The notes beneath the pieces were generated by a model. That model was given only the letters and a program-made list of their open reading frames with translations. It had not been told where the DNA came from and did no database searches. From positions 141,501 to 205,500 of the forward strand of contig LBQD01000001.1 in NCBI GenBank assembly GCA_000990585.1: a stretch of 64,000 nt of DNA, in the 5' to 3' direction. The stretch is from Candidatus Moranbacteria bacterium GW2011_GWE2_35_2-. GTDB taxonomy: Bacteria; Patescibacteriota; Minisyncoccia; Moranbacterales; UBA9337. Below are positions 5,630 through 51,279 of this stretch, piece after piece. The translations under genes were made by a program, and so were the position numbers. How positions within the stretch are numbered: the stretch's first letter is position 1; the number at the start of each line of letters is the position of its first letter.

Positions 5630-7126
5630 TTAATACATCAATACTGCTACCGGTTGCATTTTGACTACTGATTTTATGATTTTATTTTCTTCCATTCCGG
5701 AAATCACTTCCTCAATATCTTTGTAATAGGAGCTGTCTTGTAAGACTACTCCTTTGGAAGCGGCGTTGTATAATTTGACATGACGTTTTTCCATTTTTTC
5801 AAACAATTCTTTCTTATTATGCGCGGCATCTTCTTGGCTTTCGGCGCGTTTTCCTGTTCCGTGGCTTGCTGAAAAAAAGGATGAATCATTTTCATCCGTT
5901 CCGACTCCCAAATAGGCAGGAGTACTCATTGAAGATGGAATGAAAACCGGCTCTCCGGTTTGGGAAAACAGAGGATGATTTTTCATTCTTTGCGGACCAT
6001 CGGCGCTCACAGTTCCATTGCGATGCACCCAAACATCTTCGCCAAAATGATTCTCCTTCCGGTTGAAAATATGCGGAGTATCATAGAGTAAATCTAATTC
6101 AACTTGTCTTCCGAAAACTCTTTCCAAAGCGCGATCCAAATTGTCAGTTAGAACTGCCCGGTTGGCAAATCCGAAATTAGCACTGGCTTGGTGGGCAGTG
6201 AGATACATTTTTCCTTCCAGGCTGTCCGCTTCATAGCCCAAAAATTCATCAGAGTTTTGATATTTTTTTATTTTTTCGGCGATATTTTTGTATACTTGTT
6301 TTTTCTGGCTGTCGAAAAATGTTGTTCCGATTTTGAGCATCATTTTTTGACTGAAATGTTCTTTGGTTTTTGGTGTATACATATATGACGCGTATTGTCC
6401 GAAAAGTCCCGAGCCGGTGTGCATCAGAAAAATATATTGTCCGACTTTGAGATTAAACTTTTCCGCAATTTCATTGTCCTTGATTTCCGTTATTTTCATC
6501 AGATCCAAAAAGTGATTTCCGGCCGCTCCCAAAATTCCGAGACGATATTTTCCCACGTGAAAAAAGAATTTCGGAATCGCATCAAAAATATCCCGCTGGC
6601 TGATTTCTTCCGGAACCATATTTCCATTCATTGAGGAATTTTCCAATTCATTTTTTGTGCGACTTTTCAGGTGAGAAAGCAACGGGTCGATTCCTTTATG
6701 GGCAATGTCGACTGCCAATTGGTATGGAATTTTATTGCCGACATATTTTTTTGTCGGAATAACTTCGATCAATTCTTTGAAAAGTTCGTCGATTTTTTCT
6801 TCTGTCAGATTTTGGTCATTCAAATCGGTACGCAAAAAACGCATTCCGCAATTAGGGGCGGTATCGTTGATTTGGGGAAAAAGATGCGTTTTGCTTGCCA
6901 CGATTGTTCCGGTTGGATTTTTGCGTCCCGCCTTGGGATGCACGTCGCTCATCGCGGCGATATGGGAAAAAAGACGCTTGTCTTTTCCGAGGTTTTCCAG
7001 TTGGTCGAAGGTGTGCTGGTTGGGCAAAAGAGCATCCGAAGTGTGAAAAATCACCGGAACACTCATTTCCTTGGTTTGAAATTGCTGAAGATGCAGGTTT
7101 ATTTTTTTTGTTTTAGGTATTGACAT
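5630..7126 (-). CDS. rtcB: RtcB-family RNA 3'-phosphate ligase
   Basis: RtcB motifs in order: MSDVHPKAG (DxH metal site), PNCGMRF, GAAGNHFLDL, HTGSGLFG. The C-terminal PSSMSTPAYLGVGT...SASHGTGK matches the RtcB PGSMGT..Y..GT...S..HGAGR block. Confidence 0.8.
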   Translation of the reverse strand: MSIPKTKKINLHLQQFQTKEMSVPVIFHTSDALLPNQHTFDQLENLGKDKRLFSHIAAMSDVHPKAGRKNPTGTIVASKTHLFPQINDTAPNCGMRFLRTDLNDQNLTEEKIDELFKELIEVIPTKKYVGNKIPYQLAVDIAHKGIDPLLSHLKSRTKNELENSSMNGNMVPEEISQRDIFDAIPKFFFHVGKYRLGILGAAGNHFLDLMKITEIKDNEIAEKFNLKVGQYIFLMHTGSGLFGQYASYMYTPKTKEHFSQKMMLKIGTTFFDSQKKQVYKNIAEKIKKYQNSDEFLGYEADSLEGKMYLTAHQASANFGFANRAVLTDNLDRALERVFGRQVELDLLYDTPHIFNRKENHFGEDVWVHRNGTVSADGPQRMKNHPLFSQTGEPVFIPSSMSTPAYLGVGTDENDSSFFSASHGTGKRAESQEDAAHNKKELFEKMEKRHVKLYNAASKGVVLQDSSYYKDIEEVISGMEENKIIKSVVKMQPVAVLMY

Positions 7127-7248
7127 AAAATTATTTATGTAGTATTATATTGAGTTAATAGTAGTTATTTTGAAAATTTGATATATAAATTGAGGAATAG
7201 TTTGCTTCGTCGCAGATTCCTCGCAAAGACGTTTCAGGGGGTTGCACT

Positions 7249-7479
7249 ATGAAATATGATACCACAATCGAGCCGGGAACGGAAGTTTTTCTGGCTAATA
7301 AAATCATAAGGACAAGGAGGCGCTTTTTTGTCTTAGAGGACAATGGAGAGGTGCTTCTCGTACTTAAAGTTTATGGAAAACCTAATTTTGCTAAGCATCC
7401 AAAATATGGATATCCGGTTGCAATTTGTGACAAGGTAATGTTTCGATCAATTTCTGGATTCCCGCCTTCGCGGGAATGA
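7249..7479 (+). CDS. Small hypothetical protein. Its last ~8 codons and stop are supplied by a hairpin repeat copy.
   Basis: AGGGGG RBS 7 nt upstream of the ATG. The C-terminal ...SGFPPSRE comes from the repeat GGATTCCCGCCTTCGCGGGAATGAC. Confidence 0.4.
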   Translation: MKYDTTIEPGTEVFLANKIIRTRRRFFVLEDNGEVLLVLKVYGKPNFAKHPKYGYPVAICDKVMFRSISGFPPSRE

Positions 7480-7480
7480 C
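7454..7480. repeat. Dispersed palindromic hairpin repeat (CATTCCCGC-loop-GCGGGAATG family), copy 2
   Basis: CTGGATTCCCGCCTTCGCGGGAATGAC: a 9-bp perfect stem around a 4-nt loop. Same family as 1185..1210. Confidence 0.6.
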
Positions 7481-7829
7481 AAAAGAAAAAAAAGGGGGGG
7501 ATATGAAGAAGAAGATTTGTTTTTTGGTTTTAGGGTTGTTGCTTCTGGTTTGCATTCTTGGGAATGCAGGCGTGTTTTTTTCTGAGAAAAAACAACTACT
7601 CCGATTGAGTGAGGAAGTCGTCGCGATTTTTGTGGCATTTCCCGATGGCGAAATTATTTTAAAGCGCAATATTGGGAGTTTCCGGAGTTTATCTCCGGAT
7701 GATATCGCCTTGATTCCGGCAAAAAACGAGGATATTTCGGCGAAGTTTGTGGGGTTTTTTAGAATATCATCAATGGGGTTTGGATATGATATTCTGACGC
7801 CGGTAGCAGAAGGAGAGGAAACTTTATGA
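7476..7829 (+). CDS. Small secreted/membrane-anchored hypothetical protein. The likely start is MKKKICFLV at ~7503.
   Basis: N-terminal hydrophobic signal-like segment. Tandem with the neighbouring small ORFs. Confidence 0.35.
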   Translation: MTKEKKGGDMKKKICFLVLGLLLLVCILGNAGVFFSEKKQLLRLSEEVVAIFVAFPDGEIILKRNIGSFRSLSPDDIALIPAKNEDISAKFVGFFRISSMGFGYDILTPVAEGEETL

Positions 7830-45320: not shown

Positions 45321-45488
45321 AATTTTTTATAATTTAAATTGTTATATCCCTTTCTCTTGCCAAAAACTACTTACTATGATACGATGATTTCTGTAATAAG
45401 GCAACCTAATTTCATAAAGCATACAACATAAAACACATAGCAGTAAATGCAAATGTTCTATGTTCCATGCTCTATGTTTTGTGATTTT

Positions 45489-45656
45489 ATGAGTAGAACA
45501 TGTGAAATTTGCGGACGCGGAACCCAATCTGGAAATTCTCGAAGCCATTCCAATATCGCTTCCAAAAGAAAATTCAAGGTTAATGTTCAATCAAAGAAAA
45601 TTGAAGGAAAAAAAATGAAAGTTTGCGCCAAATGCATAAAAACTATTTCCAAGTAA
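45489..45656 (+). CDS. rpmB: 50S ribosomal protein L28. The track ORF is over-extended at the N-terminus, and the likely start is MSRTCEIC.
   Basis: CEICGRGTQSGNSRSHSNIASKRKFKVNVQ matches L28. Confidence 0.8.
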   Translation: MSRTCEICGRGTQSGNSRSHSNIASKRKFKVNVQSKKIEGKKMKVCAKCIKTISK

Positions 45657-45707: not shown

Positions 45708-46775
45708 TCAAACATCCCTGCTCATCATATAATCAGCCATTCCTAAAAGAAATTCTTTGGCTTCACTTTTTATCTGAGCACTCTCAATTTCTTTTTTTCC
45801 TTGCTTGATAAAATCAGTGGCTGTTTTTTGCGCATATTCCAATGCACCGGAAGCAATAATCGCCCGACGGAATTCATCAATATCTTTAGATGTTAATTTC
45901 TCTTTCCCCAGCAAACTCTTAATGACCTTTTTTTGATCAGCTTTTCCAATTTCCAAAGCGCGCGCCACTAAAATTGTTTGTTTTCCTTCTTGAATATCTG
46001 AACCAACCGGTTTTCCGATTTTTCTCTCTGATCCAAAAATTCCCAAAATATCATCTTGAATTTGAAAGGCAATTCCGATCGGAATGGAAAAGCGAGTAAT
46101 TTTTTCCAAAAGTTCATCGCCGGCTCCGCCCAAAATCGCTCCCAAATGAAGCGGACCTTCGATGGTATATTTGGCAGTTTTATTTTTGTACATTTGCAAA
46201 ATTTCTTTCTCGCTCGCCTTTCCCGCATATTCAATATATACATCTTGTGATTGTCCGATAACCGTCATAGAAACAATCCCTTGTAATCGGTCCAATGCCT
46301 TCATGATATTTTTTGTGTCAAAATCCGAATTGAAAATGATTTGATTTCCCATTGCCCCTACCATATCCCCCACAATAATCGCGATGGAATTACCAAAATG
46401 CGCGCTGTCTTTTTTGGGAAAATATTTTTTCCCCAATTTGGAAAAATGATAGTGCGCTGTGTCCACTCCGTGGCGCATATCGTCCTTATCAATGATATCA
46501 TCATGGATGAGAAGAAAAGCGTGAATAAGTTCAATGCTTACTGCGGTCTTGAGAGCTTTTTCTCTTTCTTTTCCTCCAGCAGCCAAATAGCCATAATACA
46601 TGAGTGCTGGGCGCAATCTTTTACCTCCGGAAAGCACATATTTTTTCACAAATCGCAAAGCATCGGCGATAAATAGGTCTTCCTTCCCTGCTTCTTTGAT
46701 AGCTTTATCCAGATATTTTTCAATTTCCGGATCCAGTAAATCCTTAAATTTTTTCAGCTCCTCCTTAATGTCCAT
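45708..46775 (-). CDS. Polyprenyl diphosphate synthase (trans-isoprenyl diphosphate synthase, IspA/GGPPS family)
   Basis: First and second Asp-rich motifs, LIHDDIIDKDD and QIQDDILG. Confidence 0.85.
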   Translation of the reverse strand: MDIKEELKKFKDLLDPEIEKYLDKAIKEAGKEDLFIADALRFVKKYVLSGGKRLRPALMYYGYLAAGGKEREKALKTAVSIELIHAFLLIHDDIIDKDDMRHGVDTAHYHFSKLGKKYFPKKDSAHFGNSIAIIVGDMVGAMGNQIIFNSDFDTKNIMKALDRLQGIVSMTVIGQSQDVYIEYAGKASEKEILQMYKNKTAKYTIEGPLHLGAILGGAGDELLEKITRFSIPIGIAFQIQDDILGIFGSERKIGKPVGSDIQEGKQTILVARALEIGKADQKKVIKSLLGKEKLTSKDIDEFRRAIIASGALEYAQKTATDFIKQGKKEIESAQIKSEAKEFLLGMADYMMSRDV

Positions 46776-47393: not shown

Positions 47394-48362
47394 TTATTTT
47401 TTCTCGAATAACTTAACTGCCTTTTCTCTACCATGATAAATCGATACTATTTCTAATGCTAATTTCTTTTTGATTTCATACGGATCCGCAATCTTATTTT
47501 CTAATTTTGTTCTTATGTCAATAATTTCTTTCATTGGTAAATAAGTGCAATCTACAAAAAGTTGATAGATGTTCTCATCTGCTTGGTTCATAATACCTTT
47601 AAACATTTCTTCTGCAGAAAAATCAAGAAATACTCCTGTTCCCATTGACTTGGACATCATTTTTTCTTTAGTTATTGGATTTTCAAGTAAGGTTGTTATA
47701 AAGACAAATTTTTCCTTATTTCTATATTTACCTTGCAAATCCCTGCCTACAAGAGCATTAAATTTTTGATCGTTTCCGCACATCTCAACATCAACATCTA
47801 TCTCAACGGAATCCCAGCCTTGCATTATGGGATAAAAAAGTTCGTGAAGATATATGGGCTTTTCTTCATGTATGCGCTTTTCAAACATATCCCTCTCCAA
47901 CATTTGCTGAACAGTGAAATTACCTGCTAATTCAAGAGCTTTTTTATTATCCATTTTCGAAAACCAATCGTGATTATACATTATCTTAACTGGATTTTCT
48001 CTATTATCCAGATTTATAATCGGCCTTATTTGATCTAACCATGTCTTTGTATTTTCTACAACATCCTTTCTTGTTAATTTTTTTCGGGTAGCCGTTTTAT
48101 CAGTAGGATCACCAATACGCGAAGTAAAGTCACCTATTAAAAAAATTACTTCGTGACCAAGTTGACGGAATTTTTCAAGAATCATGTAGTTTGTTGCGTG
48201 ACCAAGATGCAAAGATGTTCCTGTTGCATCTGTGCCGATATATATCCTTAATCTATCTCCAGAAAGCATTTTCTGCTTTAATTTTTCTTTACTTGGAAGA
48301 ATTTCTGCAACTGAGCGTGTTAATAACTCATCTATTTTATTTTTATTGATAATAACATCCAT
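47394..48362 (-). CDS. tyrS: Tyrosyl-tRNA synthetase-like class I aaRS (short form, no S4 domain; TyrS/TrpS subfamily)
   Basis: IGTDATGTSLHLGH...LIGDFTSRIGDPTDK matches the TyrS HIGH region and GDP motif. KMMSKSMG (KMSKS). Confidence 0.6.
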   Translation of the reverse strand: MDVIINKNKIDELLTRSVAEILPSKEKLKQKMLSGDRLRIYIGTDATGTSLHLGHATNYMILEKFRQLGHEVIFLIGDFTSRIGDPTDKTATRKKLTRKDVVENTKTWLDQIRPIINLDNRENPVKIMYNHDWFSKMDNKKALELAGNFTVQQMLERDMFEKRIHEEKPIYLHELFYPIMQGWDSVEIDVDVEMCGNDQKFNALVGRDLQGKYRNKEKFVFITTLLENPITKEKMMSKSMGTGVFLDFSAEEMFKGIMNQADENIYQLFVDCTYLPMKEIIDIRTKLENKIADPYEIKKKLALEIVSIYHGREKAVKLFEKK

Positions 48363-48459
48363 ATTTTGAGATATTTTAAAATAAGTAGTCCTTAGTAGTT
48401 TATCAAAAAAACAATACTCTGTAAATAATTATACAGAGTATTAGTTGGAATAGTTAAGC

Positions 48460-49503
48460 TCATATCGAGCACTCAGTCTCTACATGGTCCCTGTCAACAA
48501 ACACCTTGTAGTATGCATCACTGGATATCCTCTTAAATCGGCAGTAATCTTTAAGCTTCTCTTCACGACTTAAAACTCTATCACACTGCCAATACCACTT
48601 TGTGTGGCTACACACATCTTGCCATGGACATTCGGTTTGTGGACAAGTCAAAGGCTGATAACTTACGGTATGCACGCCCTTGATAACCTCCTCTATTTTA
48701 TTTCCAAGATTGTCTTGCGATAAATTATAAGAATTCTCCAAATTCAGCTCAAACAGATATGGGTCATCCCCTCCATATGCATATTCTGGGATTATGCTTG
48801 AAAATAGATTAAGCGGAGTCACTGATCCAAAATCATGAACCACGTCATAGAGAACTTTTTGTAAATCCATCCATTCATTCTCTGTCGGTCTTTGATATGA
48901 ATCGTAATTGATTTCACAAATTAATGGAATGTAACCTAGCTCATCCAAGAACCAAGCACAGATATCGTAAAGATTCCTGAAAGCTTTCGTGGGAATCACG
49001 CAAACGCCTGCTCTGATTGGAAACTTATCAGTGTTATATTCCTTTATTAGATGTACGATTCGTTTTGGGTTAGGAGCTCCCGAATCAGGAAAAATTGGAT
49101 TCTCCACAGATACAAAAGCATGACTGATAGCACTATTTTGCGCTGCTAAAACCCAGCTTTTGTTCATTGCTTTTCCAGCAGTTAGGATAAATGGCCTGAC
49201 ATTTGTAATGCTAAACCCTTTATTTGCCAACTTAAACAGTCTCTCTCCGAGAACCATTGGCTCTCCGCCTGAAAATCTATAGGAAAGTTTTCCATCAACA
49301 TATTCATTGCACAGTTTTATAAATCTCATATATATATCAAACTGGCTATCTGATATATCATAAGCAAATTTCTGTCTAGAACGAGACTTAAAATAATGAC
49401 AATAAGTGCAGTTACAATTACACCTCCCTGTAACACCCACGCTAACAGTATAGATTTTTTTTCTGATGTTTTTTTCTGATACACATTGCCCTAAGTCTTT
49501 CAT
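48460..49503 (-). CDS. Radical SAM enzyme with a C-terminal SPASM/twitch-like Cys-rich auxiliary-cluster domain (peptide-modifying maturase-like)
   Basis: GRCNCNCTYC (CxxxCxxC) at residues ~27-36. GGEP motif. At least seven further Cys in the C-terminal third (LTCPQTECPWQDVCSHTKWYWQCD ... C). GGAGG RBS. Confidence 0.75.
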   Translation of the reverse strand: MKDLGQCVSEKNIRKKIYTVSVGVTGRCNCNCTYCHYFKSRSRQKFAYDISDSQFDIYMRFIKLCNEYVDGKLSYRFSGGEPMVLGERLFKLANKGFSITNVRPFILTAGKAMNKSWVLAAQNSAISHAFVSVENPIFPDSGAPNPKRIVHLIKEYNTDKFPIRAGVCVIPTKAFRNLYDICAWFLDELGYIPLICEINYDSYQRPTENEWMDLQKVLYDVVHDFGSVTPLNLFSSIIPEYAYGGDDPYLFELNLENSYNLSQDNLGNKIEEVIKGVHTVSYQPLTCPQTECPWQDVCSHTKWYWQCDRVLSREEKLKDYCRFKRISSDAYYKVFVDRDHVETECSI

Positions 49504-49524
49504 TTTTTACCTCCATATAAAATC

Positions 49525-49558
49525 AGGGGGATACCTTTAAGACATAAGGCATCCCCCT
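49525..49558 (-). promoter_or_regulatory. Strong hairpin between the small ORF and the rSAM gene. Candidate attenuator or partial terminator.
   Basis: AGGGGGATACCTT-loop-AAGGCATCCCCCT: a 13-bp stem with one mismatch. It is followed on the minus strand by a U-rich stretch and then the rSAM RBS. Confidence 0.5.
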
Positions 49559-49588
49559 ATCTGGGTTAAAGGAAAAGGAATTTGTCGC

Positions 49589-49711
49589 CTATGGCCGCAT
49601 ATCCGTGGAATAAGCGATAGTCTTGGAGACATTGTCTCTTTTTTGCGCAGAAACTTGTGCCATCTTCTGTCGAACACGATCCGCTTTGGAAAGAACAACT
49701 TTTTTCTTCAT
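49589..49711 (-). CDS. 40-aa small ORF immediately upstream of the rSAM/SPASM gene. Candidate precursor peptide, or alternatively a truncated S20-like fragment. Not in the ORF track because it is under 60 aa.
   Basis: ATG with an AGAGG RBS 8 nt upstream. Hand translation: MKKKVVLSKADRVRQKMAQVSAQKRDNVSKTIAYSTDMRP. Confidence 0.4.
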   Translation of the reverse strand: MKKKVVLSKADRVRQKMAQVSAQKRDNVSKTIAYSTDMRP

Positions 49712-49932
49712 GACACACCTCTTTTTTGAGTGTTTCTAGCTCTAAAGCGAGCCAGTAATACACGAACTGAAACTAATATCAGCTCGTAGCTAAATTTAAA
49801 CTATCATCAAATTAAAAAATTGTCAATTAACCAGATATTAAATACTAATCTGAACTACAATCCCCTCTAACTAAAATTCCGGATTCATAAGTCATATAAA
49901 AAACAAGGCTCAAAAAAGCCTCGAATTTCATA

Positions 49933-50046: not shown

Positions 50047-50931
50047 TTAATTAACCTTATTAATCCAAGCTTTAATCTTCTTTTCTAATTCCTTTGCAAA
50101 GCCTTGGAAATTATGAGGAGTACCTTTCAGGGTAAATATTTCAGCATTTTTTCCTTCAAGCTCTCTGGTGAACCATTCAGCTATTTTAGAAATTTCCCTG
50201 TCTTTATAATCGTCTTCCTCTGCAAGAACGATAAGCAAGGGTAATTTCACACTTTTCAATATTTTCGGACTCTTCTCTGAAGCATAACTGAAAATCTCCT
50301 CAACACTTTCTGGCGTAAAAAGACTAAGAAATCTTTGCGCATCAATAAGATAATGCCATATTTTTTTTGGCAAAAATACATCTCCCTTGCCATCCTTAAC
50401 CATTTTTTTAGCAAATCTTACAGCCTTGTTATAAATCTTCCTATCAGTAAAGGCATACGTATCAGCAAAATCACTCATGGGGGCCAAAAGAATTGCGCTT
50501 TTTATGTTTTTATTTTTCCTTTTGGAAAGATAATAGACGCTTTTCTGGGTTCCCGTAGAATGACCAATGAGAAGAATATTTTTACTACCCAATGATTCAA
50601 CAAATCTAACAGCACCATCAATATCATCAACACAATCAGTAAAAACCTCTTTAGCCATTCCAATCAAATGTTTTTTTCTTCCACTTTTTTCTTTTTTATC
50701 CACCTGGCTAATTCTGGAAAGAACACCACTACCCCTATTATTAAAAAGTAAAACGGAGTTGTTCTTATCAACCAACCTTTCTGCAAGTTCTGCTTGTGAA
50801 AATAAATTACTCCCAAGACCATGAATAAATATGATTACATTTTTAGCCTTAGGTGAACCAAAAAATATTCCATCTAAAAGAAATTTTTTGGGGGTTTGAA
50901 TTTTAACAATTTTTCCTTCCATATGCCTCAA
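50047..50931 (-). CDS. Alpha/beta hydrolase fold protein (esterase/lipase-like)
   Basis: HGLGSN oxyanion-hole region and the nucleophile elbow GHSTG. Confidence 0.7.
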   Translation of the reverse strand: MRHMEGKIVKIQTPKKFLLDGIFFGSPKAKNVIIFIHGLGSNLFSQAELAERLVDKNNSVLLFNNRGSGVLSRISQVDKKEKSGRKKHLIGMAKEVFTDCVDDIDGAVRFVESLGSKNILLIGHSTGTQKSVYYLSKRKNKNIKSAILLAPMSDFADTYAFTDRKIYNKAVRFAKKMVKDGKGDVFLPKKIWHYLIDAQRFLSLFTPESVEEIFSYASEKSPKILKSVKLPLLIVLAEEDDYKDREISKIAEWFTRELEGKNAEIFTLKGTPHNFQGFAKELEKKIKAWINKVN

Positions 50932-51117: not shown

Positions 51118-51279
51118 TTATTTCGCTTCCTTATGCAGAGTATGCTTTTTGCAGAATTTGCAATATTTTTTCATTTCCAATTTCTCCTTCAACTTCTTCT
51201 TATTGCGATTGGAATAATGAGTTATTTTTTTGCACTCATTGCATTTGAATTTAACCAAATTTTCCTTTGTCTTTGCCAT
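51118..51279 (-). CDS. rpmG: 50S ribosomal protein L33 (53 aa). Absent from the ORF track.
   Basis: Hand translation: MAKTKENLVKFKCNECKKITHYSNRNKKKLKEKLEMKKYCKFCKKHTLHKEAK. It has the C..C...C..C zinc-ribbon and the LE(L/M)KKYC..C.KHT.HKE L33 signature. Confidence 0.8.
   Translation of the reverse strand: MAKTKENLVKFKCNECKKITHYSNRNKKKLKEKLEMKKYCKFCKKHTLHKEAK

Follow-up and report, generated by a model that had tools for sequence, protein, structure and literature searches.

The window analyzed here is a stretch of 64,000 nucleotides (positions 141,501 to 205,500 of contig LBQD01000001.1) from the genome of Candidatus Moranbacteria bacterium GW2011_GWE2_35_2-, and the element in question is a cassette of three genes on its minus strand encoding a small peptide, a radical S-adenosylmethionine (SAM) enzyme and a tyrosyl-tRNA synthetase (TyrRS). 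An earlier note on this DNA had drawn attention to the first two as a possible module for a peptide that is ribosomally synthesized and then modified post-translationally (RiPP), consisting of a 40-aa open reading frame (ORF) with its own ribosome-binding site, a hairpin and the radical SAM gene. The small ORF, taken from the ORF list and the sequence, is indeed present (49589..49711); its product, MKKKVVLSKADRVRQKMAQVSAQKRDNVSKTIAYSTDMRP, is referred to below as the precursor. It is preceded by a 5' leader (49712..49740, minus strand, read from the sequence) with the ribosome-binding site AAGAGGTG located 7 nt from the ATG, and this leader is kept in close relatives. Some 100 nt beyond the leader, near 49825, there is a TTGACA hexamer which, judging from its sequence, may be a candidate promoter; a consensus promoter scan made no call there. 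The radical SAM gene (48460..49503, ORF list and sequence) encodes a 347-aa protein, termed here the maturase, and has the GGAGG ribosome-binding site described before. It follows the precursor ORF in the order claimed, after a gap that we measured as 85 nt and not 86 nt, and this spacer holds a stem-loop with a U-rich tract (49559..49524, minus strand). The third gene (47394..48362), which the earlier note did not mention, encodes a TyrRS of 322 aa (TIGR00234, 263 bits) and is the main clue to function.

Related loci were gathered from exact-protein look-ups, GTDB species genomes, a metagenome scan and a plasmid collection, and their radical SAM proteins were collapsed at 90% identity into 65 non-redundant groups; individual loci are denoted below by L numbers. 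A small ORF is found directly upstream of the enzyme, on the same strand, in 54 of the 65 groups, in agreement with the proposed RiPP-like succession of precursor, hairpin and maturase. These ORFs encode 24-80 aa (plus one of 9 aa) and each has its own ribosome-binding site. Their N-terminal parts are unrelated between lineages, and their C-terminal parts share a nearly invariant core with the consensus [L/I]-A-(Y or W)-S-(T)-(D). Numbering from the aromatic residue, position -2 is Leu or Ile across the 54 loci, position -1 is most often Ala (29, with Ser in 8, Gln in 5 and Gly in 4), position 0 is Tyr (49) or Trp (5), position +1 is Ser in all but one locus (53; Cys in 1), position +2 is mainly Thr (37, followed by Ser in 6, Trp in 3, Phe in 2 and Val in 2) and position +3 is Asp in 44; a follower of 0-7 additional residues completes the peptide. 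The precursor of the window combines a variable Lys-rich leader with the core I-A-Y-S-T-D and a 3-residue follower, MRP, and the same ORF is present in its 93-95% relatives (L001, L013 and L042).

The ORF with its C-terminal motif, and often the hairpin too, recurs upstream of enzyme homologues that are only 30-56% identical, the frame and the amino-acid motif being preserved across phyla although DNA and leader residues diverge completely. Co-conservation of the peptide with the radical SAM gene, which the earlier note had proposed as a check, was found as a core-bearing ORF beside the enzyme in many phyla. Carriers include members of the candidate phyla radiation (CPR; Moraniibacteriota at 95% identity, Paceibacterota and Parcubacteria), Bacteroidota (Larkinella), Firmicutes (many Clostridia and Bacilli, with Butyribacter intestini as an isolate), Alpha-, Beta- and Gammaproteobacteria (among them gut Alphaproteobacteria and Micavibrio), Bdellovibrionota (Pseudobdellovibrionaceae) and Chlamydiales, as well as plasmids, namely an IncP-1-type backbone and the Caballeronia plasmid pNK84. 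The plasmid collection contributed one family member, and the scan of viral contigs yielded no true ones. Even the remote homologue L118 retains the motif as ...VGYSTDSY.... The precursor itself matches no family in Pfam, NCBIfam and PADLOC scans, and the possibility that it is an S20-like ribosomal protein fragment, raised earlier as a potential refutation, was rejected on this ground. Overall, the conservation pattern makes it highly probable that we are dealing with a RiPP-like pair of precursor and maturase.

On the IncP-1-type backbone (KorA, IncC, KorB, KfrA, KfrB and Tra genes), an 80-aa precursor ending in ...ALSYSTDLSE and the radical SAM gene lie between korB and kfrA (L003 4681..6098; also L004, L005, L046 and L047), with no aminoacyl-tRNA synthetase (aaRS) or exporter close by. 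A distant branch of the same radical SAM family (~31% identity; L089 1204..2997, L092 4726..6553, L095 4791..6565, L031, L098 and L099) is preceded by upstream peptides that end in VEISTM, VEISVK or GMSTN, with Ile or Met in place of Tyr or Trp. The gene that follows the enzyme in this branch encodes a 200-225 aa phosphoribosyltransferase-domain protein (PF00156), not an aaRS or a transporter of the major facilitator superfamily (MFS), and L089 additionally carries a downstream gene for a 1008-aa RelA/SpoT-domain protein.

Within the maturase, the CxxxCxxC motif noticed previously corresponds to C28-x3-C32-x2-C35; it is invariant in an alignment of 83 homologues, and an AlphaFold2 model of the protein (pLDDT 92.8, pTM 0.89) superposes on radical SAM structures, in line with membership in this superfamily. 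The C-terminus, which had been described as Cys-rich and SPASM/twitch-like, contains three cysteines that are invariant in the same alignment (C287, C292 and C298) and one that is conserved in at least 90% of its members (C321); C308 is not conserved. Four conserved cysteines would suffice for one auxiliary cluster, and this region is best described as twitch-like and not as a full SPASM domain with its seven or eight cysteines. The absence of an N-terminal extension resembling a RiPP recognition element (RRE) is likewise borne out, as the modelled barrel begins at residue 16 and a Pfam scan of the enzyme gave neither an RRE/PqqD nor a SPASM match at E<=0.1. PF04055 (Radical_SAM) is recorded for most homologues and reaches 19.8 bits on the window protein (cut-off 29.5). 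In the Pfam, NCBIfam and PADLOC scans combined, the enzyme stays below every family cut-off, its weak matches covering the radical SAM core only, including that to prokaryotic viperin, which is the top NCBIfam match (31.7 bits versus 180).

The comparison with radical SAM subfamily models that the earlier note had recommended gave 29.6 bits versus 349 for the anaerobic sulfatase-maturating enzyme (anSME; TIGR03942), 24.6 versus 441 for the related NF010321 and 23.3 versus 284 for MoaA (TIGR02666). With scores so far below the cut-offs and no linked sulfatase, an assignment to MoaA, or to anSME with a cognate sulfatase, was rejected. A sequence search against the PDB returned nothing useful. 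On the other hand, a Foldseek search of the PDB with the model retrieved anSMEcpe as the best match (E 7e-13, TM 0.62-0.65, full length), followed in order by ChlB, SuiB, SkfB, viperin-like enzymes, PqqE and EpeE. The solved structures nearest to the model are those of SPASM/twitch enzymes that modify peptides; despite the smaller number of C-terminal cysteines, the fold is thus anSME-like over its full length. The family is rare and sharply delimited: a search of 5.8 billion proteins produced 88 homologues at 31-93% identity, and among 1.84 billion representatives there were 45 clusters (50% identity) at E<=1e-30, beyond which the scores fall steeply to those of generic radical SAM proteins. 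The literature covered, which excludes subscription-only papers, contained no description of this maturase family or of a link between radical SAM and aaRS genes, and the RiPP family is apparently undescribed. In three Firmicutes loci a second, shorter radical SAM-like ORF of the same family (257-258 aa) lies beside the main maturase on the minus strand (L025 ~6926..7702; L029 and L034 ~6956..7730).

The spacer hairpin, found by a terminator-type scan and by folding, has a stem of 14 pairs (7 of them G-C), one more than the 13 originally counted, and a loop of 8, followed by the U-rich tract AUUUUAUAUG. Its folding energy corresponds to z = -3.2 relative to dinucleotide shuffles, and the 3-kb region contains 7 terminator-like sites against 1.3 expected. 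The hairpin is retained in close relatives, with a G.U pair replaced by A-U in L001 and L042, and strong unrelated hairpins (dG <= -14 kcal/mol) occupy the same spacer position in ~19 of 45 other loci. The window hairpin probably serves to raise the precursor:enzyme ratio, either as a leaky intrinsic terminator or by stabilising the mRNA; while the hairpin is real, its earlier description as an attenuator is better replaced by that of a partial terminator or stabiliser of the type common after precursor genes. Another terminator-like hairpin with a T-run lies in the gap between the maturase and TyrRS genes (48443..48412, minus strand) and is overlapped by promoter-like hexamers (both are consensus matches only), from which the TyrRS gene may be partly transcribed independently. 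An Rfam scan of the cassette and its surroundings detected no riboswitch, T-box or leader, with the exception of a T-box before the Butyribacter tyrS, and the small ORF as a regulatory RNA was rejected as the region has no Rfam match. In the same locus of Butyribacter intestini TF01-11 (L035 8263..11142), the T-box leader (131 bits), group II intron domains and a 639-aa ORF containing TyrRS come in this order in a region ~2.2 kb downstream of the cassette.

Neighbouring genes were clustered all-against-all and the comparison was then extended to all 65 groups, aaRS genes being counted within ~3 kb. An aaRS of the Tyr/Trp class is present in 27 groups (24 with TyrRS, one with both TyrRS and TrpRS, and two with TrpRS only), the types being confirmed by scores above the TIGR00234 and TIGR00233 cut-offs. 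TyrRS accordingly accompanies 25 groups, the window included, which is far more than the ~1% or less that chance would give for a single-copy gene. The core residue follows the type of synthetase: the 25 groups with a linked TyrRS all carry Tyr in the core, and both TrpRS-only groups (L023/L070 and L078) have a W-S-W core. The precursor of L023/L070 ends in ...SVSWSWAE next to a TrpRS that scores 257.6 bits with TIGR00233 (cut-off 176.75), and that of L078 is the 9-aa MDAPCWSWD; the Fisher probability of the split between Tyr or Trp core and TyrRS or TrpRS among aaRS-linked loci is ~0.003. An MFS exporter is found in 13 groups, none of the 65 has both an aaRS and an MFS exporter, genes for GNAT acetyltransferases occur in L006, L029/L034 and L118, and a phosphoribosyltransferase accounts for the 6 groups of the distant subfamily. 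The comparison of loci shows the precursor-maturase pair to be genetically coupled to an aaRS that matches its core aromatic residue (Tyr with TyrRS, Trp with TrpRS); where no synthetase is linked, its partner is often an MFS exporter and in some cases a GNAT.

Some individual arrangements may be mentioned alongside these counts. In a CPR locus (L043 806..4535) the genes for a Tyr-core precursor (...CLAYSTNK), the radical SAM enzyme, TyrRS and TrpRS follow one another consecutively, and one further locus (L066) contains a TyrRS fragment. A gut metagenome locus (L064 4771..10137; also L062, L063 and L065) has a Trp core, ...EEPMWSSDVYVDGN, with downstream genes for a 698-aa protein without a Pfam match, an MFS transporter and a SAM-dependent methyltransferase. 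The cores are atypical (IAYSYSA and IAYCMAG) in the proteobacterial loci L052 (5999..8828) and L060 (6171..9039).

The TyrRS of the window is truncated. Its match to the TIGR00234 tyrS model covers positions 4-311 of 406 and it aligns with residues 1-312 of the 403-aa homologue from L002, so that the catalytic and helical domains are kept and the C-terminal S4-like tRNA-binding domain is absent; no remnant of this domain was found downstream of the gene. The motifs HLGH, KMMSKS, Y-x3-Q-x2-D and GNDQ are intact. Thousands of homologues of 400-410 aa are at most 73% identical to it, and those above 80% are all truncated. At least five independent contigs show the truncation, and a second, independent one occurs in L071/L086/L091; their sister L072 has 400 aa. 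The truncated TyrRS of Bacillus stearothermophilus makes Tyr-AMP but cannot bind tRNA, and in TyrRS heterodimers that pair a truncated with a full-length subunit one site is active. Because of this biochemistry, a truncated TyrRS could not be a housekeeping enzyme by itself, but it could be a decoy or make up half of a heterodimer that is resistant.

Several other linked TyrRS genes, by their sequence and context, look like accessory copies. Two tandem TyrRS genes, 30% identical, follow the radical SAM gene in a locus of Paceibacterota (L015 4834..7463, same as L048). In a metagenome-assembled genome of Rhodomicrobiaceae (L011) the pair is flanked by relaxase/coupling-protein genes on one side and by an integrase gene on the other. 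The linked TyrRS of Larkinella sp. VNQ87 (L018) has its best match in Rufibacter (63%), with no Larkinella or Spirosomataceae protein among the best 120 matches. The window itself contains no second TyrRS gene within its 64 kb. Trees of the radical SAM and TyrRS proteins have congruent local clades, which argues for co-inheritance. The proximal TyrRS of L015 falls in a CPR clade with altered motifs (HIGR for HIGH, KMSSS for KMSKS and GDTS for GDPT).

Among known systems, the closest in chemistry may be the triceptides, whose motif rule is aromatic-X-X (e.g. YSK, HAS and FTK in MicA) and whose characterised members are cut just before the first cyclophane motif (PMC12912966). The resemblance lies in a short peptide with an aromatic-X-X motif (here Y-S-T, Y-S-S, Y-S-V, Y-S-F or W-S-W) and a radical SAM maturase with a C-terminal Fe-S domain (XyeB, GrrM/OscB, ChlB or MicB in triceptides), ChlB, the second-best structural match, being a multiple-cyclophane (triceptide) synthase according to Ruel et al. 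2025 as cited in PMC12912966. If cut in the manner of triceptides, our peptides would begin with Tyr, its amino group being free. On the other hand, the enzyme is not a member of the three-residue cyclophane-forming (3-CyFE) radical SAM/SPASM families (XyeB, GrrM/OscB, YhhB, AmcB and FxsB), as it scores 15-26 bits with their NCBIfam models against cut-offs of 310-450 (XyeB 21 vs 450, GrrM 14.9 vs 310, YhhB 26 vs 445 and AmcB 18 vs 425). It has four conserved C-terminal cysteines instead of the seven or eight of SPASM, each peptide carries a single motif with Ser nearly always at +1 and usually Asp at +3, and the cross-link itself is putative. No report of an aaRS linkage of triceptides was found in the literature. 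Compared with anSME (AslB/AtsB family), the best full-length structural match, the likeness is that anSME modifies a Ser or Cys within a peptide and does so with no RRE, and the residue after the core aromatic is Ser or, once, Cys. The differences, apart from the low model scores, are one set of auxiliary-cluster cysteines and not two, and a dedicated small peptide in place of the sulfatase motif C/S-x-P-x-R; no sulfatase gene is conserved in the neighbourhoods of the cassette.

The closest parallel in genetic logic is provided by RiPPs that act as Trojan-horse inhibitors of aaRS. A hairpin after the precursor gene mccA is known in microcin C, as is seen 3' of the precursor gene here. Cluster-linked aaRS genes also confer self-resistance in the agrocin 84 (AgnB2 LeuRS), mupirocin (MupM IleRS), indolmycin (TrpRS) and albomycin (SerRS) systems. 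As in these, an aaRS of the target type stands by the biosynthetic genes, here sometimes in a mobile (L011) or xenologous (L018) form; unlike here, their products are not radical SAM RiPPs, and the lack of the tRNA-binding domain in some of our copies is unusual for a resistant aaRS. Tiarins (trifolitoxin-like RiPPs) were presented as Trojan-horse aaRS inhibitors in a December 2025 preprint, which for them as for microcin C takes a core-matching aaRS and a GNAT or exporter as alternative means of protection (bioRxiv 10.64898/2025.12.02.691738). The loci described here are alike in their short precursors, in the linked aaRS that matches one core residue, in the GNAT and exporter genes as alternative self-protection and in a processing that is proposed to yield a warhead with the specificity residue at its head. 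They differ in the core motif and in the modifying enzyme, the sole conserved one being the radical SAM protein in contrast to the nitroreductase/YcaO-type (tfx) and MccB adenylyltransferase enzymes, and inhibition of TyrRS or TrpRS is in our case putative. By this analogy, the system could work like the aaRS-targeting Trojan-horse RiPPs, yet it belongs to neither the MccB-type nor the TfxB/YcaO-type family.

Based on these parallels, we favor, with moderate confidence, an interpretation in which the module makes a Tyr-headed inhibitor of TyrRS and the neighbouring TyrRS protects the producer. Most transcripts would end at the hairpin after the precursor gene, leaving the peptide in excess of the enzyme. 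The maturase would bind the leader directly, since it has no RRE, and would modify the Y-S-T core by 5'-deoxyadenosyl radical chemistry with the help of one auxiliary Fe-S cluster. The likeliest product would be a triceptide-like three-residue cyclophane in which the Tyr ring is joined to the beta-carbon at position +2. An alternative would be an anSME-like oxidation or cross-linking at the invariant Ser, a Ser-centred reaction being kept possible by the anSME-like fold and by this residue (Cys in one locus). Either chemistry would accord with the prediction in the earlier note of a non-thioether modification on a peptide without Cys, which the Tyr/Ser core appears to fit. The modified peptide would be released and taken up by competitors or hosts, and trimming at the small residue before Tyr would generate a Tyr-headed warhead that fills the tyrosine/tyrosyl-adenylate site of TyrRS and halts translation. 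The producer would be protected by its linked TyrRS copy, whose truncated form in the window could be a decoy or could supply the resistant subunit in a heterodimer, and in other lineages by export (MFS) or N-acetylation (GNAT). The tRNA scans of the loci detected no cassette-associated tRNA-Tyr or tRNA-Trp, and a tRNA/aaRS pair dedicated to a non-canonical amino acid was disfavored on this ground.

A number of observations weigh against the TyrRS-inhibitor interpretation. A Tyr cross-linked through its ring may sit badly in the tyrosine pocket of TyrRS, and the distant subfamily has Ile or Met at the place of the aromatic residue, so that cyclophane chemistry cannot be universal. The match between Trp core and TrpRS comes from two loci, perhaps not independent, one of them with the 9-aa ORF, and the linked full-length TyrRS of CPR genomes may be the sole copy. 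Resistance substitutions were sought in the active-site motifs of the window TyrRS and none was found. The remaining objections are at the same time what would be expected if the product were a genuine radical SAM RiPP with another role (as a signal, as a cofactor-like derivative of Tyr or as an antimicrobial aimed at a different target) and the TyrRS a housekeeping gene linked for regulation or supply, e.g. in response to tyrosine availability. No aaRS, MFS or phosphoribosyltransferase gene is present in 19 of the 65 groups (8 of these with short flanks), two plasmids being among the loci without an aaRS. In L052 and L060 the genes after the cassette encode a histidine kinase with a CHASE domain and a response regulator of the LuxR type, and this gene order could reflect a signalling role in that branch. 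The TyrRS of the window has unaltered catalytic motifs and belongs to the ordinary type that is common in Patescibacteria. Globally, the pairwise identities of the TyrRS proteins show no correlation with those of the radical SAM proteins (rho = -0.05), which points to TyrRS genes that are locally recruited or housekeeping. Finally, in L119 (9118..10864; TyrRS 80% identical) the radical SAM gene lacks its first ~130 codons and the precursor is absent, while the truncated TyrRS (324 aa) is intact, as would be expected of an essential gene; this decay fits an orphan immunity gene just as well. We nevertheless consider such another role unlikely, albeit the most serious competitor, as it leaves unexplained why the specificity of the aaRS tracks the core residue, why aaRS and MFS genes never occur together, why TyrRS genes stand in tandem at one locus, why a linked TyrRS lies within a mobile element and another in Larkinella is xenologous, and why the tRNA-binding domain was lost twice, given that such a TyrRS cannot charge tRNA alone.

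The linked TyrRS, or its truncated catalytic domain, might instead be a biosynthetic partner that adenylates tyrosine or a Tyr-like carboxylate to be joined to the peptide, or that supports a tRNA-dependent tailoring step. The truncated form does keep all Tyr-AMP-forming residues without the tRNA-binding domain, aaRS genes do serve tRNA-dependent steps in some pathways (valanimycin; bioRxiv 10.64898/2025.12.02.691738), and the phosphoribosyltransferase of the distant subfamily could be a sign of nucleotide or ribosyl chemistry in the family at large. We regard this explanation as improbable, since ~40 of the 65 loci have no aaRS at all, making it unnecessary for biosynthesis, the pair has no conserved ligase gene (PEARL-like, ATP-grasp or other) beside it, the peptide already encodes Tyr, and mutual exclusion with exporters suits protection better than synthesis. 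Still more remote is the possibility that the small ORF is untranslated, the upstream region being a regulatory leader and the substrate of the enzyme a non-peptide (tRNA-Tyr, free tyrosine or TyrRS), which the tyrS linkage and the lack of an RRE might suggest and against which stand the frame and motif kept across phyla despite total divergence of DNA and leader, the individual ribosome-binding sites, the absence of any Rfam family matching the region and structural neighbours that are peptide-modifying enzymes.

A wider generalization of the TyrRS-inhibitor interpretation is put forward tentatively, and we hold it to be somewhat less probable than not. The loci might represent a new class of radical SAM-made peptide antibiotics against aaRS in which the core residue sets the target (Tyr for TyrRS, Trp for TrpRS), which has spread horizontally and which in some lineages would rely for immunity on a TyrRS devoid of its tRNA-binding domain; such a class would range over free-living bacteria, plasmids and host-dependent or predatory lineages (CPR/Patescibacteria, Micavibrio, Bdellovibrio-like bacteria and Chlamydiales). 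If true, this would constitute a new chemical route to aaRS inhibitors, based on a radical SAM enzyme instead of adenylation or YcaO-type chemistry, with a simple sequence rule to predict the target and a ready-made resistance marker, and would concern in TyrRS a validated and under-exploited antibacterial target. The cassette would be among the first natural-product loci of CPR bacteria to be functionally interpretable and would suggest a route by which CPR episymbionts might disturb the translation of their hosts, and a TyrRS without the tRNA-binding domain acting as a decoy or heterodimer half would be a new form of target-based immunity. Even if the prediction of the target is wrong, a compact maturase with no RRE and a single auxiliary cluster, acting on a peptide with a six-residue invariant core, would offer a small and tractable enzyme-peptide system for new radical peptide chemistry.

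With respect to its surroundings, the cassette sits in an ordinary core-genome stretch of the window, and the GC content at the locus gives no island signature. The genes 5' of the cassette are not the same in the 93-95% relatives L001 and L013. The flanks contain four tRNA genes and the genes for ribosomal proteins L33 and L28 (51015..51596 and 51118..51279 on the minus strand; 45447..45656 on the plus strand), as well as genes for a DUF1749 alpha/beta hydrolase (50047..50931) and a polyprenyl synthase (45708..46775).

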